A DNA stretch of 12,765 bases from a virus (taxonomy: Duplodnaviria; Heunggongvirae; Uroviricota; Caudoviricetes): positions 1-12,765 of IMG/VR virus record IMGVR_UViG_2529292922_000012, one strand, 5' to 3'. Both the position numbers and the translations under genes were made by a program. Shown piece by piece: positions 1-12,765 of this stretch (the stretch's first letter is position 1; each line of letters starts with the position of its first letter). Under the pieces are notes generated by a model that was given only the letters and a program-made list of their open reading frames with translations, had not been told where the DNA came from and did no database searches.

Positions 1-274
1 GTCCCATTGACCGAATATTAAGATAATGACTTCCTGTTAACCACCCCTGTATGCTTAAGATGACCCTTCCCGCATCCACACCTCGCCCATCATCCCAACC
101 ACGGATAAACTCACCGCGTAAATCCGGTAATTTATTGGTGGGGTAGGCCTTTGCCAGTTTGGGATACATTTCAGAAGAAAATGCTGCACCATTGCATTTT
201 AGCCAGCCCGTTGGTGGTGTTTCTAAGGGCCACGGAACGGGCACACCAACAGGCAGTGCAGAGCCTTCCCCTAA
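1..274 (-). CDS. Tail-fibre C-terminal cassette, 5' part only (continues past the left window edge); no start codon of its own
   Basis: Minus-strand frame open from ~274 to position 1. Translation begins ...LGEGSALPVGVPVPWP...DDGRGVDAGR like the two downstream cassettes, then diverges. Antisense of track ORF 159..362. Confidence 0.6.
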
Positions 275-329
275 ACCAACGTTTTCATGCCGCCCTTACG
301 ATATAATTAAACGCAATGTTACGAGGACG
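69..329. repeat. Direct repeat copy A (~260 bp) spanning a cassette boundary
   Basis: Near-identical to 508..768 at a constant 439-bp offset, with scattered substitutions. Confidence 0.9.
266..291. other. Candidate invertase crossover site (cix/mix/hix-like), copy 1
   Basis: TTCCCCTAAACCAACGTTTTCATGCC. Shares the AAACC-AA-(C/G)GTTT core with recalled hixL (TTCTTGAAAACCAAGGTTTTTGATAA). Sits at the 5' end of a cassette. Confidence 0.5.
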
Positions 330-713
330 AATGGTTACATAATTAACCCCATCACCTCGTGAAGGCCCTGCAAATGAAAAACGGGAAAATCCTGGTTGGT
401 TAGAAACAATTTGGTCATAGTTATTGATTGAATGACCAGACCCAATGTCGAAATTACCTCCGTAATGAGAAAAACTTGTACCATCCTGCCCTGAAAGCAG
501 GGTACGTCCCGCATCAATCCCGCGCCCATCATCCCAGCCACGGATAAATTCACCGCGTAAATCCGGTAATTTATTGGTGGGGTAGGCTTTTGCCAGTTTG
601 GGATACATTTCAGAAGAAAATGCTGCACCATTGCATTTTAGCCAGCCCGTTGGTGGTGTTTCTAAGGGCCACGGAACGGGCACACCAACAGGCAGTGCAG
701 AGCCTTCCCCCAA
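285..713 (-). CDS. Tail-fibre C-terminal variable cassette (collar-like conserved N-part, variable tip, conserved ...RPRNIAFNYIVRAA end)
   Basis: Track ORF, 142 aa. N-terminal ~65 aa near-identical to cassette 724..1185. The 'M' is a TTG inside the crossover-like site; the frame stays open a few codons upstream, so it is probably a 3' gene segment fused to a constant 5' part after inversion. Confidence 0.75.
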   Translation of the reverse strand: MGEGSALPVGVPVPWPLETPPTGWLKCNGAAFSSEMYPKLAKAYPTNKLPDLRGEFIRGWDDGRGIDAGRTLLSGQDGTSFSHYGGNFDIGSGHSINNYDQIVSNQPGFSRFSFAGPSRGDGVNYVTIRPRNIAFNYIVRAA

Positions 714-768
714 ACCAACGTTTTTATGCCGCCCTTACGATATAATTAAAGGCAATATTACGAGGACG
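508..768. repeat. Direct repeat copy B (~260 bp)
   Basis: Aligns with 69..329 and, more divergently, with 982..1197. Confidence 0.9.
705..730. other. Candidate invertase crossover site, copy 2
   Basis: TTCCCCCAAACCAACGTTTTTATGCC. Imperfect dyad around a central AA, same orientation as copy 1. Confidence 0.55.
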
Positions 769-1185
769 GTTTTCATTAGCTGTTGGCACGACACGAGAGG
801 CGTCGAATCCAAGGTCATCGGTTTTGCCTATATCAGTTGTGTTATTCGGCATTCTCGCAGATCGTGTTCCTGCATCATAAAAAGCCCCTCTGATTGCATC
901 AAAAGACATGCCAATCCCGCCATCTGCGAACCCCTCAATATTTCTTATTGCATCCCCCTGTGAAGATAATAATTGTCGCCCGGCATCCACACCACGTCCG
1001 TCATCCCAGCCACGAATAAATTCACCGCGTAAATCCGGCAATTTATTAGTAGGGTAAGCCTTTGCCAGATTTGGGTACTTTTCAGAAGAAAATGCTGCTC
1101 CGTTACATTTCAGCCACCCCGTTGGCGGAGTGGCTGAGGGCCACGGAACAGGTACGCCAACGGGCAGTGCTGAGCCTTCCCCCAA
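724..1185 (-). CDS. Tail-fibre C-terminal variable cassette, proximal to the invertase gene
   Basis: Track ORF, 153 aa. Same conserved N-part (GEGSALPVGVPVPWP..TPPTGWLKCNGAAFSSE..AKAYPTNKLPDLRGEFIRGWDDGRG) and same C-terminal NIAFNYIVRAA as 285..713, with a different middle. Begins at TTG inside the crossover-like site. Confidence 0.75.
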   Translation of the reverse strand: MGEGSALPVGVPVPWPSATPPTGWLKCNGAAFSSEKYPNLAKAYPTNKLPDLRGEFIRGWDDGRGVDAGRQLLSSQGDAIRNIEGFADGGIGMSFDAIRGAFYDAGTRSARMPNNTTDIGKTDDLGFDASRVVPTANENRPRNIAFNYIVRAA

Positions 1186-1197
1186 ACCAACGTTTTA
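982..1197. repeat. Direct repeat copy C (~215 bp, more diverged; homology stops at the crossover-like site)
   Basis: Aligns with copies A and B from 'catcccagccacg' to 'caaaccaacgtttt', then diverges toward the invertase gene. Confidence 0.85.
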
Positions 1198-1203
1198 GTC
1201 TTA
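1178..1203. other. Candidate invertase crossover site, copy 3 (right boundary of the invertible region, ~55 bp upstream of the invertase start)
   Basis: TTCCCCCAAACCAACGTTTTAGTCTT. Repeat homology ends exactly here. Arrangement mirrors gixR-gin and cixR-cin. Confidence 0.55.
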
Positions 1204-1256
1204 ATCCCTACCTATACCAACGATGTATTTTTAACTAAACAAAGAGGTTGTTTTTC

Positions 1257-1829
1257 ATGCAAATTGGCTACATTCGTGTGTCAACAAATGACCAAAACAC
1301 AGATTTACAAAGAAATGCACTGAACTGCGCAGGATGTGAACTGATTTTTGAAGATAAAATAAGCGGAACAAAGTCAGCCAGACCAGGCTTGAAAAAGCTG
1401 CTCAGAACGTTATCAGAAGGAGATACGCTGGTTGTCTGGAAGCTGGATAGGCTTGGCAGAAGTATGAAACACCTTATCACGCTTATAGAGGAGTTGCGGG
1501 AAAAAGGTGTTAATTTCCGTAGTCTGACAGACAGTATTGACACATCAACACCCATGGGGCGTTTCTTTTTTCATGTCATGGGTGCTTTAGCAGAAATGGA
1601 ACGTGAATTAATTGTTGAGAGAACACTGGCCGGACTGGCAGCTGCACGCGAACAGGGACGCATTGGCGGACGTCGCCCGAAGTTGACAAAAGAACAACAT
1701 GAGCAAATAGCGAGGTTGATCGAAAATGGCTACAGCAGGAAACAGTTGGCAATTATTTACGATATCGGTGTATCGACGATTTATCGTTATCATCCTGTAG
1801 AGAAGCGCCAAACTCAATCTGAGCTGTAA
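1257..1829 (+). CDS. cin: Serine recombinase, Hin/Gin/Cin/Pin/Min-family DNA invertase
   Basis: MQIGYIRVSTNDQNTDLQ...VVWKLDRLGRSMKHL...SLTDSIDTSTPMGRFFFHVMGALAEMERELIVERT...GRIGGRRPKL plus C-terminal HTH: canonical invertase motifs with catalytic Ser in IGYIRVST. The track starts at an upstream TTG (1248); I chose the internal ATG, which gives the family-typical N-terminus. Symbol reflects P1-like context. Confidence 0.9.
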   Translation: MQIGYIRVSTNDQNTDLQRNALNCAGCELIFEDKISGTKSARPGLKKLLRTLSEGDTLVVWKLDRLGRSMKHLITLIEELREKGVNFRSLTDSIDTSTPMGRFFFHVMGALAEMERELIVERTLAGLAAAREQGRIGGRRPKLTKEQHEQIARLIENGYSRKQLAIIYDIGVSTIYRYHPVEKRQTQSEL

Positions 1830-1951
1830 TTCTAATGCCGCGTCGGTGTAATTTATCTTGATAGAATAGGTACATTTATCGCGCGGCACATCAATTCGAT
1901 GTATCTAGCGCCTGCTGACCGCTAATGAAAACTGTTCTCGAAATGTTGTCC

Positions 1952-1970
1952 CTAGTCCGAGACTAGGGTA
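1952..1970. repeat. Perfect 8-bp inverted repeat CCCTAGTC-cga-GACTAGGG in the intergenic region
   Basis: Seen directly. No U-tract on either side, so more likely a protein-binding dyad or RNA structure than an intrinsic terminator. Confidence 0.4.
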
Positions 1971-2264
1971 TCACCTCTGGAAAGCATACGCAGAACCTTT
2001 TTTAACCCAGGGTGCCCAGCTTTTTTGCTGCTCGCCTTATTCGCAAAAATTAGCTCACATCCTGCGCTTTCAAGTGCTTTTCACTGCATAGCTGTGTTTT
2101 GTTCATTTGTCTATATGCGTACATAGCCTATTAGCATATTTTCTGCCCACTATCGTTATTTATTGCAAGCTACAGGTTTTAATTAACAAAACCAGTGTGT
2201 GTGGAAATCACAAAGTGCATACCGTTCTCAAATGTTGTTCAACTTACTGTTGTATAGGTAAAAA

Positions 2265-2528
2265 ATGACATTTTATGTACATATCGTGATGTTATCCCTT
2301 CTTGGTGGGGTGTATTCGTATTTGAGTGGGCTATGTGAAAACCGTTACGAGTCTTCATGCAAGAAATTGCTGGCCGAATGTATTTCCGCCGTACTTGCTG
2401 GCTTTATTGGCATGTATCTCGCGGAATATAAGGACATGAATGAAAGCCTTCAGAGCTGCATGGTTCTTATTTTCAGCGCCAATAGCAGGCTTATTATTGA
2501 AGGTTCCAAAAGTCGGTTGAATAGGTAA
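2265..2528 (+). CDS. Hypothetical small protein with two hydrophobic segments
   Basis: Track ORF, 87 aa. Weak SD (AGGT ~9 nt upstream). Hydrophobic stretches IVMLSLLGGVYSYLSGL and ISAVLAGFIGMYLA. No recognised family. Confidence 0.3.
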   Translation: MTFYVHIVMLSLLGGVYSYLSGLCENRYESSCKKLLAECISAVLAGFIGMYLAEYKDMNESLQSCMVLIFSANSRLIIEGSKSRLNR

Positions 2529-2602
2529 GTCTCTTATGCAACATAACCGGTTGAGAAGTTACTTTGCATACCATTACCTCCTGACAACGTAGGAGGGAAC
2601 TT

Positions 2603-2932
2603 GTGCTTGACACACAGGAATTAGCTCCAGTTGCTATTGCGCTCCTGCTTTCAGTAATTGGTGGGATAGGCACGTTCCTGATGGATGTCCGAGACGGTCG
2701 CCAGTCTGGCAATTTGTTGGGATTGGTTACGGAGATCTTTGTTGCAGTGACAGCTGGCGCGGTGGCGTACCTATTGGGGCAACACGAGGGCTGGGAGTTA
2801 TCAATTACGTACTTAATGGTAACGATAGCCAGCAATAACGGTCATGAGGTGATTTCAGGGATGAAACGAGTGAATATCGATAGCATTCTGAATGTTCTTA
2901 CAAGTTTGGTGAAAAAGGGAGGCGGGAAATGA
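2603..2932 (+). CDS. lydA: Holin-like small membrane protein; LydA-like first gene of the lysis/dar operon
   Basis: Strong SD AGGAGGG 6 nt before GTG start. 109 aa with 2-3 predicted TM segments and a charged C-terminus (KKGGGK), which is holin architecture. Position after cin matches my recollection of P1. Confidence 0.55.
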   Translation: MLDTQELAPVAIALLLSVIGGIGTFLMDVRDGRQSGNLLGLVTEIFVAVTAGAVAYLLGQHEGWELSITYLMVTIASNNGHEVISGMKRVNIDSILNVLTSLVKKGGGK

Positions 2933-3372
2933 TTGGCTGGGGTGTATGCGTTCTTGCGTTAGCCTTAGCCGATCGCTATTTGCTAAAACGCAAGGACATC
3001 ACGCATTTAGAACTTGGTGATGTGGAAATTAAACCGGGTTTCATCCGGGTGCCGTTCAAATACCGGTCTAAATTCCCGTTTTTGCGCGGCGCAACGGTCA
3101 GATATTGGATCCGCGATGTTCAGAAGCCGACGACAGTGATTGAAGGCGAACAACGTTGTTTGACGTCGGCTGAACAGGGCGAAAACAGTGAATGGTTGTA
3201 CATACCCACTGAATATATGGGTAAAGGAGAGCGACTGTGGCATTTCAACGTCATGGTTACGCATGGCGACTCGTTCATTAACCCGTTGTATCGGATTTTC
3301 CCTGTTACTCAGCAAATCCGCAGAAGTTACGTAATAAATCTCGCACAGGATGTGTCAGATGACGAAAAATAA
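2929..3372 (+). CDS. lydB: LydB-like protein (putative holin antagonist) with N-terminal hydrophobic segment
   Basis: ATGA overlap with the preceding stop. SD GGGAGG. 147 aa. Named by synteny only. Confidence 0.45.
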   Translation: MIGWGVCVLALALADRYLLKRKDITHLELGDVEIKPGFIRVPFKYRSKFPFLRGATVRYWIRDVQKPTTVIEGEQRCLTSAEQGENSEWLYIPTEYMGKGERLWHFNVMVTHGDSFINPLYRIFPVTQQIRRSYVINLAQDVSDDEK

Positions 3373-3961
3373 GTATGCAACGGTCGATTTTGACCAGGTT
3401 AATGAAAAGGGGCTGAAATCCCTTATCGCGGCGATCAATAAAACCGGTGTTACGGTAATTGAGGTTGACTCCAGCAACCGCGCAACAACGAAAGATGGCG
3501 TTAAAGTTAAAACCGCAAAGCTGGTTCTTAACGACGGACAAATTCTTGCCATACAGGTAAACGATACTGGCGATATATCGTCTGTGAGGCTGAATGGAAA
3601 AGCTATTCCTAACGCTCAGTCGCCGGATATCAAGACGCTTGGTACCGTCATGGGGCAAGCGGCCCGCAAAAACTCCGCAAAATTCCAGAAATCACTGATC
3701 GCCAAAGCGAAACGTGTTGCCAATCCGGTAGACAAGAAACCGGCAGTAAAATCCAACTTTCAGCGCCTGCAAGAGGCAAAACAGCGGAATGCTCAGGTGG
3801 TTGCCGCTTATAAATCAGCGCAGAACTCGGTGTCTTTCAATCAACAGCAGATCACTGATTTGCGGGCGAAGCTGGATAAGGAGACAGGCCGACTCAATAA
3901 CGAAAAGGCCCGAAATGGCGAACTCAAACGCCGTCTTAAGCAACTGAAAGCAGGAAATTAA
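3359..3961 (+). CDS. hdf: Hdf-like protein (homologue of a DarA fragment), coiled-coil C-terminus
   Basis: Shares a segment with the next protein (..ARKNSAKFQKSLIAKAK.. versus ..AEKNSAKFQRAQKKKKA..), also visible at DNA level. Start ambiguous: 3350 or 3359; overlaps the lydB 3' end. Confidence 0.6.
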   Translation: MTKNKYATVDFDQVNEKGLKSLIAAINKTGVTVIEVDSSNRATTKDGVKVKTAKLVLNDGQILAIQVNDTGDISSVRLNGKAIPNAQSPDIKTLGTVMGQAARKNSAKFQKSLIAKAKRVANPVDKKPAVKSNFQRLQEAKQRNAQVVAAYKSAQNSVSFNQQQITDLRAKLDKETGRLNNEKARNGELKRRLKQLKAGN

Positions 3962-3962
3962 C

Positions 3963-5882
3963 ATGGAACAGTTCAATATCAATAAAGGGGTGACGATCAA
4001 GCCTGGGCTTGACGTGCTTCCCCCGCCAGTGACTGATGATGAATATCGCGCATTAATGGCCGGTGAGGACCGCTATCTGATGACGGAATCCAACACCCTG
4101 GAGGAAATCGAGGCTACGTTCTTCTATGACACGCCGATCCACTGGTGTGCTACGGATTTACTGGAGGCGATTAGTTCTACTCGTTTGCAGTTACACCGGA
4201 CCATGCAGGCATTTGTCCGGGCATTGAACCAGAAGCTGAATGGTACCGGAATCTCTGCGGGGAGTGATAAAACGGGGGATGTGGCCCAGAGCGGCGCGCG
4301 CGCGATCGGCGGTGCTGAAATTGGCCGGGCACGTAACGTTAACGGGCTGCCGGTCCTGCCAGCCATTATTCCGCTCAGTGATGGTCAGACTATCAGCATT
4401 CTGTTTCATAGCCCGACAGCGGAAAACCGGATCACCAATAGCGATACGCTGGTTGCTTTCCAGTTCTTACTGAATAAAAAAGACGTTACTCACACCGTTG
4501 CTCCGATGAGTGGACGTGATATGACGCTGGCGCAGGTCACCATGAAACTTGCCAACCTTGCAGAGAAAAACTCGGCAAAATTTCAGCGTGCGCAGAAGAA
4601 GAAAAAAGCCCTTGTTGATGAAATAACCCAACTACAGGCTGACAGTGACCAGAAAGAGGATGCCATGAGCGACCTCGTGGATCAGGTGGCAGCGGTAGAA
4701 GGGCAGAAGGTAGATCTGGAGCAGAAAATTAACGCTGTTGCATCGGAAGCGGATTCTCTTTATGAAGAGAATGAGCGTTTGCAGACGGAGATTGATCAGC
4801 TCAATCGCACTGGTGGGCGCGATACCATTGCTCCTGCGGGGATGACTGGTGGACACTCTCGCGCGATGACGGATCGCCTTGCCAGTATCAAAAATCGTAT
4901 GCATATGAACGGGGAAGTGACGCTCAGTAATGGTGCATCAATGAAGCAATTCATTGAGGACGGCGAAGGGTATATCCAGTTAACCGATTCGGATGGCAGC
5001 GTGTACATGATCAAGGCTAAATCCATACAGGGTGTGGACATGGCAGATGCGATCGGCAAGCTGTTTAAAGCCTATAAAGCGGGTAATGTATCGGAATACC
5101 TGGTCCAACCAGAAGAACATAAACCGGAAAACGTCGAACCTGAACCAGCGGAGGATACCGGTAGCTCTTCGCCTGAACCAGAAGTCTCTGTAGGTGCATA
5201 TCGATATGCCCTGCAAATGCGTCCGGCGGCCCCTGGCGCAATACCTGAAGGTAACAAAGCAATTCTGCCGCGCCCTGATGAAGGTGACCCGTATTATGAA
5301 TATGCACGCTACGGCATTGCTACTTACGATACCCCGCTTTCTGATCAGCAAATGAGTGAGTACGACCTGAAGTTATTGCCTCGCGAGGATTCTTTCGACT
5401 TCCTGGCGAAGACACTTACTAATGGTCCGTTTGGCAAATATGCACAAAAAGCTCTGGAGCTGGCCACCAGCTCACCAGACGAGTTCCGCGTAATGCTGAA
5501 AACTCAGTTTCAAAAAACTTTCCCCAATATTGCGTTTCCGGGGGGCGCTGGCACCGAGAAAATGGTGCAGAGCATGATCAATGCATTGCAGGCCGAAGTC
5601 GGTGAGATTACTCAGCCAGAACCTGCCCCGGCACAGCCTGATGAAACGGTTAGCGAAGCAGATGCAGAGGCTAATAAAGCCATTGAATATCTCAATAACG
5701 TGATGGATATGCAAAGCACTGACATGGCGGAGATCCGTAACGCCCGGGGTAATGTCCGGGAAGCGATTGCAGCCCTTCAGGCTGCCGGGCGTTTTGAGGA
5801 AAACGAAGAGCTGGTTAATGGCGCTGCTCGCCACTTGGCTGATCTGCTGGTAGCAATCCAGAAAGCGGGGGTAGCGGCATGA
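3963..5882 (+). CDS. darA: DarA-like anti-restriction / head-internal protein
   Basis: 639 aa. ATG 2 nt after the hdf stop, with SD AGGAA. Central coiled coil, Pro/Glu-rich linker. Named from size, position and paralogy with hdf. Confidence 0.6.
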   Translation: MEQFNINKGVTIKPGLDVLPPPVTDDEYRALMAGEDRYLMTESNTLEEIEATFFYDTPIHWCATDLLEAISSTRLQLHRTMQAFVRALNQKLNGTGISAGSDKTGDVAQSGARAIGGAEIGRARNVNGLPVLPAIIPLSDGQTISILFHSPTAENRITNSDTLVAFQFLLNKKDVTHTVAPMSGRDMTLAQVTMKLANLAEKNSAKFQRAQKKKKALVDEITQLQADSDQKEDAMSDLVDQVAAVEGQKVDLEQKINAVASEADSLYEENERLQTEIDQLNRTGGRDTIAPAGMTGGHSRAMTDRLASIKNRMHMNGEVTLSNGASMKQFIEDGEGYIQLTDSDGSVYMIKAKSIQGVDMADAIGKLFKAYKAGNVSEYLVQPEEHKPENVEPEPAEDTGSSSPEPEVSVGAYRYALQMRPAAPGAIPEGNKAILPRPDEGDPYYEYARYGIATYDTPLSDQQMSEYDLKLLPREDSFDFLAKTLTNGPFGKYAQKALELATSSPDEFRVMLKTQFQKTFPNIAFPGGAGTEKMVQSMINALQAEVGEITQPEPAPAQPDETVSEADAEANKAIEYLNNVMDMQSTDMAEIRNARGNVREAIAALQAAGRFEENEELVNGAARHLADLLVAIQKAGVAA

Positions 5883-6244
5883 CACTATCAGCTATTGAGT
5901 TAATGGATCTCAGCGATAAGTTGGATGCTTTGATGTCCAAAGCGGCTACCGCGAGTGGCATGGAGTTGCTGGATATCAGCGATGAAATTGACCAGATCAT
6001 GCAACAGATGGGGTACGGTGTGTCCGGCGGCAGTAGTGGCGAGGAAAAACAACCTTCGGTACATGATGGTGTGCCAAAACTGGTTGCTGATTTCCTGGCT
6101 GATAAATTCGTCGATCAGAGCACCGATGCATTTATCGGTACCTTGCAGGATTTGAGTCAATATGTTGGCACATACATCGACCTGGACCAGGTTAAACAGC
6201 ACACGGCGGCATGGATAGCCGCCAACATTAAAGAGGCAGCATAA
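5879..6244 (+). CDS. ddrA: DdrA-like small acidic protein
   Basis: ATGA overlap with the darA stop. 121 aa. Named by synteny. Confidence 0.5.
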   Translation: MTLSAIELMDLSDKLDALMSKAATASGMELLDISDEIDQIMQQMGYGVSGGSSGEEKQPSVHDGVPKLVADFLADKFVDQSTDAFIGTLQDLSQYVGTYIDLDQVKQHTAAWIAANIKEAA

Positions 6245-6256
6245 GGCGTAACAGGG

Positions 6257-9244
6257 ATGAGCTTAAGCGATCAGGTGGTAATGGCCACCAGCATAGAAAC
6301 GCTGATCGAGCTGCTAAAGAACCTGCCCGATTATGGGCGGGTTTCGTATGTGGTGACAGCGAAGGGAGACGAGGTAAAAACAGCGTTTGATATCGTCGAT
6401 GCCTCAGCTCTTTTGGTATCCAATACTCTGGATGGGAAAATTAATCCTGACTATCCCCAGGAACTTCAGCCGCGCGACCGGACCCGCGCATCCAGCCTTC
6501 TTCAGGTTAACCAGATATCCAAAGATTTGCGGCCTGCTCAGCTTACTGATTCCGGTTTATCCAGCCATGGTGCGCCGATAATTGGTGAGGACAATGCCGT
6601 TGAGTCTGGTAATGGACGGACCATGGGGATCATCAAAGCCTATCAGGACGGCAATGCGGATCGGTATCGTGAGTACCTGATTGATCATGCGACCGAATTC
6701 GGCATACGACCTGAAAAGGTTGAATCAATGACGGCTCCGGTACTGGTGCGCCGCCGGTTAACCAAGGTTGACCGCGTTCAGTTTGCCAAGGACTCAAATA
6801 TTTCTGATCTTCAGGAAATGGCAGCCAGTGAAAAGGCTTTTGTTGATGCCGACAGCATAACACCGGCGATGATGGCGCTTTTTAACCCGTCAGAAAGCGG
6901 AGATCTGCTTAGCCGCAGTAATGACGCGTTTATTCGCGGATTTATGACGCAAGTTGGTGCCACACAGGCGGCTGGCCTTGTAACGGAAGATGGGCGACCA
7001 ACGCGGCAACTTGTTGACCGTATACAAAACGCGATCTTTGCCAAGGCATATAAGGATGCGCGCCTGGTAAGGATGGTTGCAGAAGAACCTGATCCGGATA
7101 TGCGTAATGTTCTGACGGCGCTTAATGCGGCAGCCAATGATTTTGTCCAGATGCAGGCTTTATCAGGAGAAGCGCACAAGCAGGCTGTGACAACTATTGT
7201 TGATGGCATTGAGACAGCGGATAGCCTCGATAAAAAGGCGCTGGCGGCATTGAAAGATGCGGTAGACCTGGTAAGGCAATCGAAGGAGTCAGGCCAGCAT
7301 ATTACCGATGTTATTGCTCAGGGGGATATGTTCAGCGAAACGGCCCCGGAAGTGAAAGCACTCGCGTTGTTCATCGTCGCGAATAACCGTAGCGCGAAGC
7401 GTATGGCCACCGCCTTTAAGTTGATGGCTCAACGTATCAATGATGAGTTACAGCACCAGGGCCAGGCGCTGGGGGATATGTTTGGCGGTGGTGATGTGTC
7501 GTTACAGGATATCCTTCGCCAGGTGTCTCAGGAACTGGAAAACGAAGGCATGCAAGGGATATCCGGCGGTCTTTTCGAGTCCGTTTCCGGCGGTAGTTAC
7601 AATGGTGTTGCTCCATATACCAGTTTGCTATTACATCGGGCATCCGGCATCAAAGACATTATTCATCTGATCAGGCTGCTTTCCCGTACAGATCCCCAGG
7701 ATGAACAGCTTGTACAAGTGCTTGCGCATTTTGTTCGAATGCCTGTTGCCGACGTGAAAAAATGGTGCCGATTATTCGGTATCAGCAATTCGTTACTTCG
7801 CGGCTTGTTAAATCACGCATCCTCCCTTGGGCGCGATGGCTTTGACGAGATAGCGCAGGCGATAAAAAACGGAGATATGCCACCAGCTATTGACTGGTTT
7901 TCCATTCGCCCAACCAGGGTGAAAGCATTCCTTAGCGCGGCGCATTCGGCATCACCATTGGCAGAAATGGTTCAGAGGTTGTCGCTCATATTCACAGACC
8001 ATACCGCGTTGGGTGATCTGACTCTGGACGAGATGAAAGAAGCCTCCATTCAGTGGGCCGATCAACAAAATGAGGTTAACTCTGACTTCTTGCCAGCATT
8101 CAGGAAGGCCGTTAGTAAAGCGGATGATGCCCGTGGAATTCTGAGGGCATTTAAGGCATTGCAAAGTCAGGTTAATAAACATGTCGGTGATATCGATGGG
8201 GTAACGGCGGAAGGCAGGGATATCCTTAAAGAGCACGGCATAACGCCAGAGTTTATTGATGAGATCAGGACTGATATGCAGCGTGAGGTCGTATCGTCCC
8301 TGCAAATCGTAGCCAGAGCGTTGGCGGATGCTAATCCGAAGAGTGCGGCCATTGTTAACCGTGTTATTGGTGATATTGAAGCATCGGAGGGCATGGGGGC
8401 GCTGAAACTCTTCCTTTCGCGAGCGTTTAATCCTAACGGCAATATTCTCCCCGGCATTATTGGTGAGGCTAAAAAGTATGTCAGCGAAGAAGAACTTGAG
8501 CAGCTTGACCAACTACTTAAGCGATTCTCATATAACCCGCAGACACGCTGGCAAATGAATCAGCGAAGTATGGGTTCGGTCCACGAGAAAGTGTTATCTG
8601 CCATGAACAGTGCGATCGCAAACTCATCCGTATCTGAAGAAAAAGCTCTTGAGTGGGCCGACTCTTTTATCACGGAAGAAGTGGAAGAAGCCCGCGCTGG
8701 ACAGAATGGTGGGATAGACCTGCGCAAGGAACTTGCTGATATTTATCGCCTGACCGGCGGGAAAATATCGACATTATCAAAGGTAGTTCACCACCAGGGA
8801 AGGGCATATGCAAATCTTAATGGTGTTGTTGCTGTCAATTTGAACGATGAAAATGCAAGTGCACTGTGGCACGAGCTGGGTCATCATCTTGAGTACAGTA
8901 ACCCTGGTTTGTTAGAGAAAGCCCGGTCATTCCTGAAGGCCAATGTTGAAGGGGATAAGCCATCTTTCGTCAATATCGGTGGGCGTGGCAAGCCTGAATG
9001 GTGCTTCAGATCTCGATTGAGTAATATTTATATGGCGAAGGTATACCCGCCAGCCTCAGTAAGTAACACCGGGAAAATTCGGCAGAAATCACCGACTATT
9101 TCCAAAACGTCAGCAACGGAAGTATTCTCTATGGCTCTTCAGTTGTATCATGACAAAGAGGCCGCTGCCGCATCACTGATGAATGGTGACGGATTGCTGG
9201 AACTGTTATTAGGTGTGGCAAAGGAGCTAAATAATGCAGATTAA
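6257..9244 (+). CDS. ddrB: DdrB-like large protein: ParB/Srx-like N-terminal signature plus C-terminal HExxH (zincin-like) motif
   Basis: 995 aa. ELQPRDR...GAPIIGEDNAVESGNGRTMGI resembles ParB boxes (QPR / GxxR). HELGHH at aa 872-877 (nt 8870-8887). Long helical middle. Confidence 0.6.
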   Translation: MSLSDQVVMATSIETLIELLKNLPDYGRVSYVVTAKGDEVKTAFDIVDASALLVSNTLDGKINPDYPQELQPRDRTRASSLLQVNQISKDLRPAQLTDSGLSSHGAPIIGEDNAVESGNGRTMGIIKAYQDGNADRYREYLIDHATEFGIRPEKVESMTAPVLVRRRLTKVDRVQFAKDSNISDLQEMAASEKAFVDADSITPAMMALFNPSESGDLLSRSNDAFIRGFMTQVGATQAAGLVTEDGRPTRQLVDRIQNAIFAKAYKDARLVRMVAEEPDPDMRNVLTALNAAANDFVQMQALSGEAHKQAVTTIVDGIETADSLDKKALAALKDAVDLVRQSKESGQHITDVIAQGDMFSETAPEVKALALFIVANNRSAKRMATAFKLMAQRINDELQHQGQALGDMFGGGDVSLQDILRQVSQELENEGMQGISGGLFESVSGGSYNGVAPYTSLLLHRASGIKDIIHLIRLLSRTDPQDEQLVQVLAHFVRMPVADVKKWCRLFGISNSLLRGLLNHASSLGRDGFDEIAQAIKNGDMPPAIDWFSIRPTRVKAFLSAAHSASPLAEMVQRLSLIFTDHTALGDLTLDEMKEASIQWADQQNEVNSDFLPAFRKAVSKADDARGILRAFKALQSQVNKHVGDIDGVTAEGRDILKEHGITPEFIDEIRTDMQREVVSSLQIVARALADANPKSAAIVNRVIGDIEASEGMGALKLFLSRAFNPNGNILPGIIGEAKKYVSEEELEQLDQLLKRFSYNPQTRWQMNQRSMGSVHEKVLSAMNSAIANSSVSEEKALEWADSFITEEVEEARAGQNGGIDLRKELADIYRLTGGKISTLSKVVHHQGRAYANLNGVVAVNLNDENASALWHELGHHLEYSNPGLLEKARSFLKANVEGDKPSFVNIGGRGKPEWCFRSRLSNIYMAKVYPPASVSNTGKIRQKSPTISKTSATEVFSMALQLYHDKEAAAASLMNGDGLLELLLGVAKELNNAD

Positions 9245-9545
9245 AATCGCAGCGCCATTAGGCGGAGATGCCATTATCGAATTTGATGATAATGAAGAAG
9301 TTTCCGGGCGTTTAAGCATTATCTCCGGTGACATTACCGAGGACATGATCGCTGAAGCCATAGCTGGGGCAAATCCCAATAGCTATATGGGATTCGTTAA
9401 CACCCTTGATGCTCCCGCAAGTGATGTTCTCCGAACGCTGCATCTTTACGCTGGCTGGTTTGTTGATTGGCCAGCAGTAGATGGTGGCGATGAGGACGAC
9501 GACGACGATGATTTTGGTGATCATGTAGACCAGATCGTATATTGA
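9234..9545 (+). CDS. Small protein with highly acidic C-terminus, translationally coupled to ddrB
   Basis: ATG overlaps the ddrB 3' end. SD AAGGAG 7 nt upstream. 103 aa ending DGGDEDDDDDDFGDHVDQIVY. Last gene before the terminator. Confidence 0.55.
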   Translation: MQIKIAAPLGGDAIIEFDDNEEVSGRLSIISGDITEDMIAEAIAGANPNSYMGFVNTLDAPASDVLRTLHLYAGWFVDWPAVDGGDEDDDDDDFGDHVDQIVY

Positions 9546-9574
9546 AGAAATCCCGCCAATTGGCGGGATTTTTA
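9546..9574. terminator. Bidirectional rho-independent terminator between convergent genes
   Basis: AAATCCCGCC-aatt-GGCGGGATTT 10-bp GC-rich stem followed by a T-run on the + strand and ATTTCTTC on the - strand. Lies exactly between the stops at 9545 and 9577. Confidence 0.7.
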
Positions 9575-9576
9575 CC

Positions 9577-10663
9577 TCACGAGAAACTCTTTTCTGATGT
9601 CAGCCAACAGTGCTCGTGCATATCTCTTGGTGGTTTTTCGACAAATGCCTCTTCAGCCACATCCTGCCAGGGGATTTGTTTAGCCCATTCAGTTATAGCG
9701 TTATGGTTTGCCGAGAATAACGGTATTGTATAGGCCTTCAGCCAGTCTAATGTGCTGGAGTTGTGTTTTTGAGCGTGATGTTTCGCATGGTGTTTGGCGA
9801 TCACGATCGTAGGCACTACCCATTTACTACCGTCAGTCATTGTGAAGTGCATATTACGGGGAACAGATGACTTTTCCATCAACTCCCGAATCCCGGGGAA
9901 TTTCCCCAAGATCAATCGGCGATATTCATCGCTATTGCGTCCACCAAACTCTTTGGCTTTGAATTCAAGATATGCTTCAGAAACGAGAGGTGAATCCTCT
10001 GTGTTTAGAGTTATCGCCGTGAAAAAACCAGCAGGATTGTTTTTACTATGGGCCAACCGGTGATGCGAATCATAAAAGTACCCTTTCTCGCGTTCCGATG
10101 GTTTCGACAGCAACAGCAGGCGCGAGTCATAATTGGTTAAATTGCCAGTTATCACTGCATGAGCGCGATCGCTGATTTCCGCCGAGTTAATAACGATGAA
10201 AAGATCGTGCGGTCCAGTAAAACCAGCCAGAGACTCTTCGTTATTCAGACAATAGGTTATATAGACGCATCCCCATGTTTCACTGATATGCACCAACCCT
10301 TTGTCAGGGTGTATTCTGAAATAATTGCCAAGAAAAGGGTGTTTTTGGGTAACTCGCTCCCAATAACGGAACATATAGTCAATTATTGTTTTTCGACTAT
10401 CGTTAATCGCAGGAGAAACAACCACTGTACGGGAACACGAATACAGTATTGTTTGCAGGATGCTAATCACTGCCACAATAGAGGTTTCCCCAATACCATG
10501 TGGTGTGGTGGCAGTGACTTTGGCTCCGGTGTTCTTTATCGCGTTAATAATTTTTGCTTGATGAGGTGTTAACTCAATATCAAGCAACTCTTTTGCTGCC
10601 AGTTCCCAATTGTCTTTATACCGTTCTATCAGTGCTAACCAGGCAGATTCATTCTGTATACGA

Positions 10664-10671
<8 letters not shown>
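9577..10671 (-). CDS. Terminase-large-subunit-like P-loop ATPase-domain protein with degenerate Walker A/B; no nuclease domain apparent
   Basis: Track ORF, 364 aa, GTG start with SD GAGGTGG. Motif order PHQ...TTPHGIGETS...DLFIVINSAE...LLLLSKPSE resembles the adenine-Q / Walker A / Walker B / C-motif layout of terminase ATPases as I recall it. His-rich patch AKHHAKHHAQKH. Confidence 0.5.
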
Positions 10672-12764
<2,093 letters not shown>

Positions 12765-12765
12765 G

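Follow-up and report, generated by a model that had tools for sequence, protein, structure and literature searches.

The darA-type late operon of a P1-like phage-plasmid: lysis and antirestriction genes between a conserved late promoter and a non-homologous terminator

The sequence considered here, 12,765 nucleotides (nt) covering positions 1 to 12,765 of the IMG/VR virus record IMGVR_UViG_2529292922_000012 (Duplodnaviria; Heunggongvirae; Uroviricota; Caudoviricetes), is referred to below as the window. Its segment 2603–9545 is occupied by seven intact open reading frames (ORFs) of the plus strand, none of them with an internal stop, as established from the six-frame ORF list and by direct reading (Table 1). 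An earlier note on this DNA, made from the letters alone, had placed a seven-gene lysis and anti-restriction operon here, and all seven ORFs are found at the coordinates it gave. The gene order, lydA-lydB-hdf-darA-ddrA-ddrB-hxr, is collinear with the annotation of phage P1, with a constant offset of +551 and equal gene lengths. Two P1 references were used, the AF234172/NC_005856 annotation and AJ000741, a GenBank record of 1998 entitled 'Bacteriophage P1 darA operon', where hdf is called ORFIII, ddrA ORFV, ddrB ORFVI/VII, and hxr ORFVIII. We assign the region 2556–9573 with high confidence to a P1-type phage-plasmid as its darA ('dar') late operon, the element being a Punavirus maintained as an IncY-type plasmid prophage in the Enterobacteriaceae.

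Table 1. Features of the operon and its flanks (lengths in amino acids, aa; pI, isoelectric point)
Feature	Coordinates	Strand	Length	Remarks
LPdar, late promoter	2556–2574	+		-22 box AAGTTACTT (2556–2564), -10 box TACCAT (2569–2574); annotated in P1 (AF234172) at 3107–3125
lydA	2603–2932	+	109	holin; GTG start; PF16083, phrog_1527; identical to P1 in nucleotides and amino acids (100%)
lydB	2929–3372	+	147	LydA antagonist (antiholin); PF16084; start overlaps lydA stop
hdf	3350–3961	+	203	predicted to accompany DarA inside the head and to determine capsid size; alternative start 3359
darA	3963–5882	+	639	defence-against-restriction protein A; predicted to be head-internal and proteolytically processed
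ddrA	5879–6244	+	121	acidic, pI ~4.1; phrog_1855, DdrA-like anti-restriction; start overlaps darA stop
ddrB	6257–9244	+	995	ParB-like domain at aa 36–167; C-terminal zincin motif HELGH at aa 872–876
hxr	9234–9545	+	103	very acidic; phrog_2292 (unknown function); start overlaps 3' end of ddrB by 11 nt
Hairpin terminator	9546–9573	+		directly after hxr stop; core CCCGCC-AATT-GGCGGG, then a T run
iddB	6811–7209	-	132	putative gene, antisense within ddrB; in P1 annotated as 'unknown protein function'
Serine invertase	1257–1829	+		complete; 74% identical to P1 Cin
cin remnant	2137–1961	-	59	N-terminus of cin (59 codons), 83% identical; in P1 this region holds the Cin recombinational enhancer
lydC	2265–2528	+	87	third holin gene; Pfam Phage_holin_3_3; just upstream of the operon, own promoter
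364-aa ORF	9577–10671	-	364	phrog_5902; replaces P1 isaB plus IS1; convergent with hxr
isaA homologue remnant	10664–10810	-	48	last 48 codons; cut by IS100
IS100-like element	~10811–12764			IS21 family; istA 10897–11919, istB 11916–12698; 99.5% identical to IS100 copies elsewhere

In global alignments, the amino acid identity to the P1 products is 100% for LydA, 98.6% for LydB, 98.5% for Hdf, 98.0% for DarA, 95.9% for DdrA, 98.9% for DdrB and 97.1% for Hxr. The earlier note had made its assignment depend on the similarity of the 639- and 995-residue proteins to DarA and DdrB, and these two pairs are aligned over the full length without gaps; the other products that it proposed to compare with P1 (LydA, LydB, Hdf and DdrA) are 95.9–100% identical to their counterparts. 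At the nucleotide level, the identity is 98.4% across 2556–9233. The codons that differ from P1 comprise 66 synonymous and 34 non-synonymous cases, hence the frames appear to be under purifying selection. The sole indel in the seven ORFs is one additional Asp codon in hxr. ORFs of 639 and 995 codons at about 50% G+C far exceed what may be expected by chance.

The genes are closely packed. The stop and start codons overlap as ATGA at 2929–2932 (lydA/lydB) and 5879–5882 (darA/ddrA), hdf and darA are joined by TAA-C-ATG at 3959–3965, and the ATG of hxr at 9234 precedes the TAA of ddrB at 9242–9244; direct reading thereby bears out the four junctions listed in the earlier note. The lydB and hdf frames overlap by 23 nt (3350–3372), or by 14 nt if hdf starts at the alternative ATG. 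Between ddrA and ddrB there is a gap of 12 nt (6245–6256), and no other junction is wider than that. Shine-Dalgarno-like sequences are seen before lydA (GGAGGG), lydB (AAGGGAGG) and hxr (AAGGAG); the start of ddrB is preceded by a weak match only.

The LPdar promoter lies in a segment, approximately 2547 to 2610, that is base-for-base the same as in P1 and extends through the start of lydA. P1 late promoters of this kind, LPdar included, depend on the late activator Lpa. At most two mismatches being allowed, the LPdar signature has one match in the whole window; as about 0.8 chance matches are expected at this threshold, the search shows that there are no extra sites rather than the significance of LPdar itself.

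The hairpin at the other end of the operon is placed between the convergent hxr and 364-aa ORF. Its folding energy is -19.3 kcal/mol (z = -5.1), and none of 200 shuffled sequences folds as well. The same hairpin, with identical sequence, is present in the E. coli plasmid NZ_CP026725. The homology with P1 extends to the hxr stop and no further, hence this hairpin and the terminator that AJ000741 lists are different. It was missed by the consensus terminator scan, probably because the maximal stem includes part of the T run, and was found by eye and then confirmed by folding.

The lydA gene encodes the holin. The Pfam family PF16083 (Phage_holin_3_3) is recognised with 30.1 bits at a cutoff of 28.4, the match to the phrog_1527 holins has E = 4e-49, and the hydropathy profile features two hydrophobic segments, near residues 1–30 and 36–59. 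The lydB product belongs to a Pfam family of its own, PF16084 (E = 8e-104, full length), its PHROG is annotated as lysis determining protein, and its hydrophobicity is limited to a marginal N-terminal stretch at most. Published P1 work describes LydA as the holin and LydB as the antiholin, both encoded in the late dar operon (PMC9025707); in P1, the signal-arrest-release endolysin Lyz, encoded in an unlinked operon, works with LydA and LydB. Thus, the 'holin-like pair' of the earlier note is imprecise: LydA is a holin, and LydB is its antagonist. The third holin gene, lydC, stands apart from the operon. Its product has just 57% identity with P1 LydC, whereas the adjoining lydA is 100% identical; a sharp mosaic boundary is therefore placed near 2545, a short way upstream of LPdar.

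The hdf and darA genes encode proteins with a common N-terminal domain, DarA_N (PF18788), found with E = 1.5e-21 in Hdf and E = 3.8e-42 in DarA. DarA also contains DarA_C (PF18789, E = 5.7e-17). The PHROG assignments are phrog_1620, Hdf-like antirestriction, for the former and the DarA family for the latter. Hdf is very basic, with pI 10.3. Both proteins have full-length matches in the cryo-electron microscopy (cryo-EM) structure of P1, PDB 9ukm, where chain H is Hdf and chain I is DarA. In that structure, 55 DarA-Hdf pairs are stably bound at the inner capsid surface, at the penton-hexon junctions, where they touch DNA; they are gone from emptied heads. The P1 cryo-EM structure lacks DarA residues 1–69, as expected if DarA is cleaved by the Pro protease. 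According to published P1 work, this cleavage adjoins the cleavage site of the major capsid protein; Hdf and DarA enter the head first, and if either one is lost, every other Dar protein is kept out of it. The same work gives the fraction of normal-size heads as about 80%, falling to about 15% when hdf or darA is mutated.

Of the thirteen DarA substitutions relative to P1, ten fall within residues 239–395, that is, in the alpha-helix and penton-binding domains. One of these, P343S, is situated inside the penton-contact loop 342–346 of the cryo-EM structure.

The earlier note had read the coupled junctions as a sign of fixed stoichiometry. The 1:1 ratio of DarA to Hdf, 55 pairs per head in P1, agrees with hdf and darA being coupled through TAA-C-ATG, and to this extent the suggestion stands; for the other products, fixed stoichiometry is a conjecture.

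The ddrA product yields a single Pfam match at E ≤ 10, to BAR_3, and this is at chance level. It is also the most diverged product of the operon, with five changes in 121 residues compared to P1. The ddrB product contains the ddrB-ParB domain (PF18763, E = 2e-39), and the HELGH motif is retained; a combination of ParB and zincin domains, with a C-terminal metallopeptidase in a processing role, has been described for DdrB by Iyer et al. (PMC5512222). A sequence search of the PDB gave no match for DdrB, and the PADLOC defence models gave none for Hxr, DdrA, DdrB and the 364-aa ORF. In the P1 virion proteome, Hdf, DarA, DdrA and DdrB are all present in purified virions and assigned to the head; the same source gives antagonism of EcoA as the role of DdrA, and help in DarB addition as that of DdrB.

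On the opposite strand of ddrB, the iddB frame has 100% amino acid identity to its P1 counterpart, which could reflect a locally unchanged stretch of ddrB. It is annotated in P1 and is treated here as a putative gene only; in P1 it is non-essential according to CRISPR interference.

The hxr gene encodes a small protein with 24 Asp and Glu residues against three Lys and Arg, and pI of about 4. Its poly-Asp tract is one residue longer than that in P1. Hxr has no Pfam family even at E ≤ 10 and no NCBIfam match, and no HTH_3/Xre domain is recognised in it. The single-sequence AlphaFold2 model is uninformative, the model's confidence score (pLDDT) being 39. The P1 label 'possible repressor; homolog of Xre' finds no support, as the protein has no helix-turn-helix match and is strongly acidic. 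The hxr gene is not mentioned in the PMC9024508 supplement. It could be speculated that Hxr is an acidic anti-defence or Dar accessory factor, for example, an inhibitor of the DNA-mimic type or a protein that chaperones the basic Hdf, and we consider this rather doubtful; if it were so, Hxr would be an unrecognised seventh component of the Dar system.

The left flank of the window carries an inversion module. Three direct repeats of 262 nt (68–329, 507–768 and 979–1240) are spaced by about 440–470 nt, identity to the first copy being 96% for the second and 76% for the third. They head short minus-strand ORFs annotated as 'phage tail protein', at 285–713 and 724–1185. An imperfect inverted repeat of 36 nt, 753–788 / 1913–1948, may mark the crossover sites. 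A complete plus-strand invertase stands beside a minus-strand remnant of cin, hence a module was replaced in the past inside cin. The whole looks like a multiple-cassette tail-fibre inversion array, not the two-state C-segment of P1, and presumably resembles the Min system of p15B.

The 364-aa ORF of the right flank is also present in MH422554 and NZ_CP026725. It had no match in Pfam or the PDB. The label 'terminase large subunit' that it bears in MH422554 finds little support, as the match to phrog_2 is partial (E = 3.6e-9). Nor does this ORF seem to be an intact ancestor of P1 isaB or isaA: the local alignment scores, 43 and 38, respectively, show no meaningful similarity. The interval between hxr and ssb contains the insertion sequence (IS) IS1 in P1, and ompD, not isaA/isaB, in a Klebsiella P7-like plasmid. 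Hence we describe the region downstream of hxr as one that looks like a hotspot for insertions and variable cargo.

The operon is widespread. In a megablast search of the window against phage records, P1 and P1-like phages are matched at 97–99% over 1961–10810, and among plasmid records many phage-plasmids of E. coli, Klebsiella and Salmonella are found; across the operon itself, the identity to P1-like phages and plasmids is 97–99.8%. At 95% identity or more and at least 80% coverage, the operon is present in 439 PLSDB plasmid records, mostly from E. coli. The nearest plasmid is NZ_CP065205, with 99.8% identity over 2550–9580.

The identity, order and integrity of the genes, their domain content, the promoter and the terminator are established here from the DNA. 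The timing of expression, packaging, ejection and protection from restriction would be those of P1, by analogy with the P1 literature at 96–100% protein identity. In this model, LPdar would be activated by Lpa late in lytic growth and would transcribe the operon, whose genes may be translated in a chain through the overlapping or abutting stop and start signals. LydA, as a holin with two transmembrane segments, would permeabilise the inner membrane and LydB would delay LydA, so that the pair would time lysis together with the separately encoded Lyz. Hdf and DarA would go into the procapsid early as 1:1 pairs, favouring full-size heads and being needed for loading of the other Dar proteins. DdrA and DdrB would be loaded next; the zincin peptidase of DdrB probably processes DdrB, and DdrB may aid the loading of DarB. 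At infection, the internal proteins would leave the head with the DNA and protect that DNA in cis from type I restriction, with DarA, Hdf and DdrA acting against EcoA/StySA, and DarB, Ulx and DdrB against EcoB/EcoK.

Several of these steps have direct counterparts in published P1 work. There, the Dar protection acts only in cis, on the DNA packaged together with the proteins, and protection from EcoB and EcoK requires also DarB and Ulx, encoded elsewhere. The suggestion of the earlier note that such products are packaged in the P1 head and injected against type I restriction matches the roles given there for Hdf, DarA, DdrA and DdrB.

Some observations weigh against the assignment of a complete, working P1-type operon. 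The terminator and the one in the P1 annotation are different and not homologous. IS100 is situated 1.2 kb downstream of the operon, and other parts of the prophage could be defective. This element is followed by a single base before the window ends, which suggests an assembly break. The darB, ulx, lpa, pro and lyz genes are outside the window, and the completeness of both the Dar and the lysis systems is thus open to doubt; in P1, darB and ulx map outside this region, close to prt (portal) and pro (head processing), the ORF numbers being 9–10 versus 22–25. In P1 itself, the mode of protection may be shielding of DNA or inhibition of the enzyme. Finally, the promoter scan bearing on the single transcript, considered below, is blind to some promoter types.

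The disruption of the neighbouring isaA homologue by IS100, the cin fragment upstream and the end of the window at the IS boundary might indicate that the operon is a decaying, non-functional remnant in a defective plasmid prophage. We consider this very improbable. All seven ORFs are full length, with the extra Asp codon as the only indel, the promoter is intact, and the ratio of synonymous to non-synonymous changes points to purifying selection; the arrangement is kept in the 439 plasmid records, and isaA is non-essential in P1. Another possibility is that the region comprises several transcription units, with lydAB and the dar genes separately promoted or internally attenuated, and the tight spacing reflecting no more than genome compaction. 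The destinations of the products do differ, being the membrane for some and the capsid interior for others, and so presumably do their copy numbers; the two candidate starts of hdf, the gap before ddrB with its weak Shine-Dalgarno match and several weak terminator-like hairpins inside the operon would be compatible with such a division. However, these hairpins are not enriched (12 versus 8.6 +/- 3.3 in shuffled sequences), and the single late-promoter signature lies upstream of lydA. The sigma-70 consensus scan, which is blind to other types of promoters, finds no sigma-70-like site on the plus strand inside 2603–9545, and the search for the late-promoter pattern also finds none within the operon. 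The P1 annotation and literature describe a single late operon that is preceded by a promoter upstream of lydA and closed by a terminator behind ORFVIII/hxr. Hence several units seem improbable; at the level of sequence, the solitary late promoter, the lack of further such signatures inside the operon and the terminator behind hxr are consistent with a single transcript.

A different question is what the operon is mainly selected for. It could be first of all a capsid-assembly module, with Hdf and DarA as auxiliary scaffold or head-size determinants, the remaining products as cargo, and antirestriction as a secondary function, in which case 'anti-restriction operon' would mislabel it. The loss of normal-size heads and the exclusion of the other Dar proteins upon deletion of hdf or darA in P1 speak in favour of this, as do the stable position of the DarA-Hdf pairs at the penton-hexon junctions and the cleavage of DarA beside the site of the major capsid protein, the deletion and cleavage data being taken from published P1 work. 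On the other hand, none of the six P1 genes listed from hdf through hxr is essential for forming plaques on a permissive host. The P1 literature further states that, in the absence of Dar, phages suffer specific restriction by type I systems and that the protection is in cis, and no morphogenetic role is reported for DdrA, DdrB and DarB. Besides, the roles in assembly and in antirestriction are not mutually exclusive. We therefore regard the primacy of capsid assembly as possible, if rather unlikely, and retain the reading of a P1-type late operon for lysis and head-packaged antirestriction.

Taken together, the data support the interpretation of the earlier note as essentially right, with some corrections, among them that the seventh gene is hxr and that Hdf and DarA also set the capsid size. 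The wording 'Dar-like' understated the relationship, as the operon is orthologous to that of P1-type phage-plasmids. The locus is already known. Its GenBank entry dates back to 1998, and in P1 it has been the subject of genetic, proteomic and structural analysis. The copy described here is not new; with the locus, its genes, the promoter, the virion products and the in situ structure of two of the proteins published for P1, the discovery value is small. The analysis may be of use for annotation, as in many of the 439 near-identical copies the genes are labelled 'hypothetical protein' or carry inherited labels with poor support. From the presence of the operon, the host element can be recognised as a P1-type phage-plasmid with a pre-packaged counter-defence against type I restriction, which is relevant for the spread among the Enterobacteriaceae of such phage-plasmids, often carriers of resistance genes.

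Compared to the darA operon of P1, the one in the window has the same order of genes, the same gene lengths and overlap junctions, and the same LPdar. It differs by 34 amino acid substitutions, including P343S in DarA and the five in DdrA, by the extra Asp in Hxr, and by the terminator and the downstream gene, the 364-aa ORF standing in place of isaB plus IS1. The P1-like phage-plasmids NZ_CP065205, NZ_CP026725, MH422554, P7 (AF503408), SJ46 and RCS47 share the operon; many P1-like phage-plasmids also share the downstream 364-aa ORF, and NZ_CP026725 has, in addition, the plus-strand invertase and the terminator hairpin. Among the matches listed in the whole-window searches, those to P1-like elements extend as far as 10810, where IS100 is inserted, and for the IS itself all listed records are unrelated.

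The internal protein I of T4 (IPI*), like other antirestriction proteins that are carried in the capsid and co-injected, follows the same strategy as Dar: it travels in the head, leaves it along with the DNA and neutralises restriction at entry. However, it has no sequence relationship to Dar and consists of one small protein that inhibits a type IV enzyme; Dar, in contrast, is multi-protein, sequentially assembled, cis-acting, directed against type I systems and tied to the control of capsid size. The Ocr protein of T7 and ArdA target type I restriction-modification, as Dar does. They are made after entry and are DNA mimics that bind the enzyme in trans, whereas the Dar proteins are pre-packaged and act in cis only.

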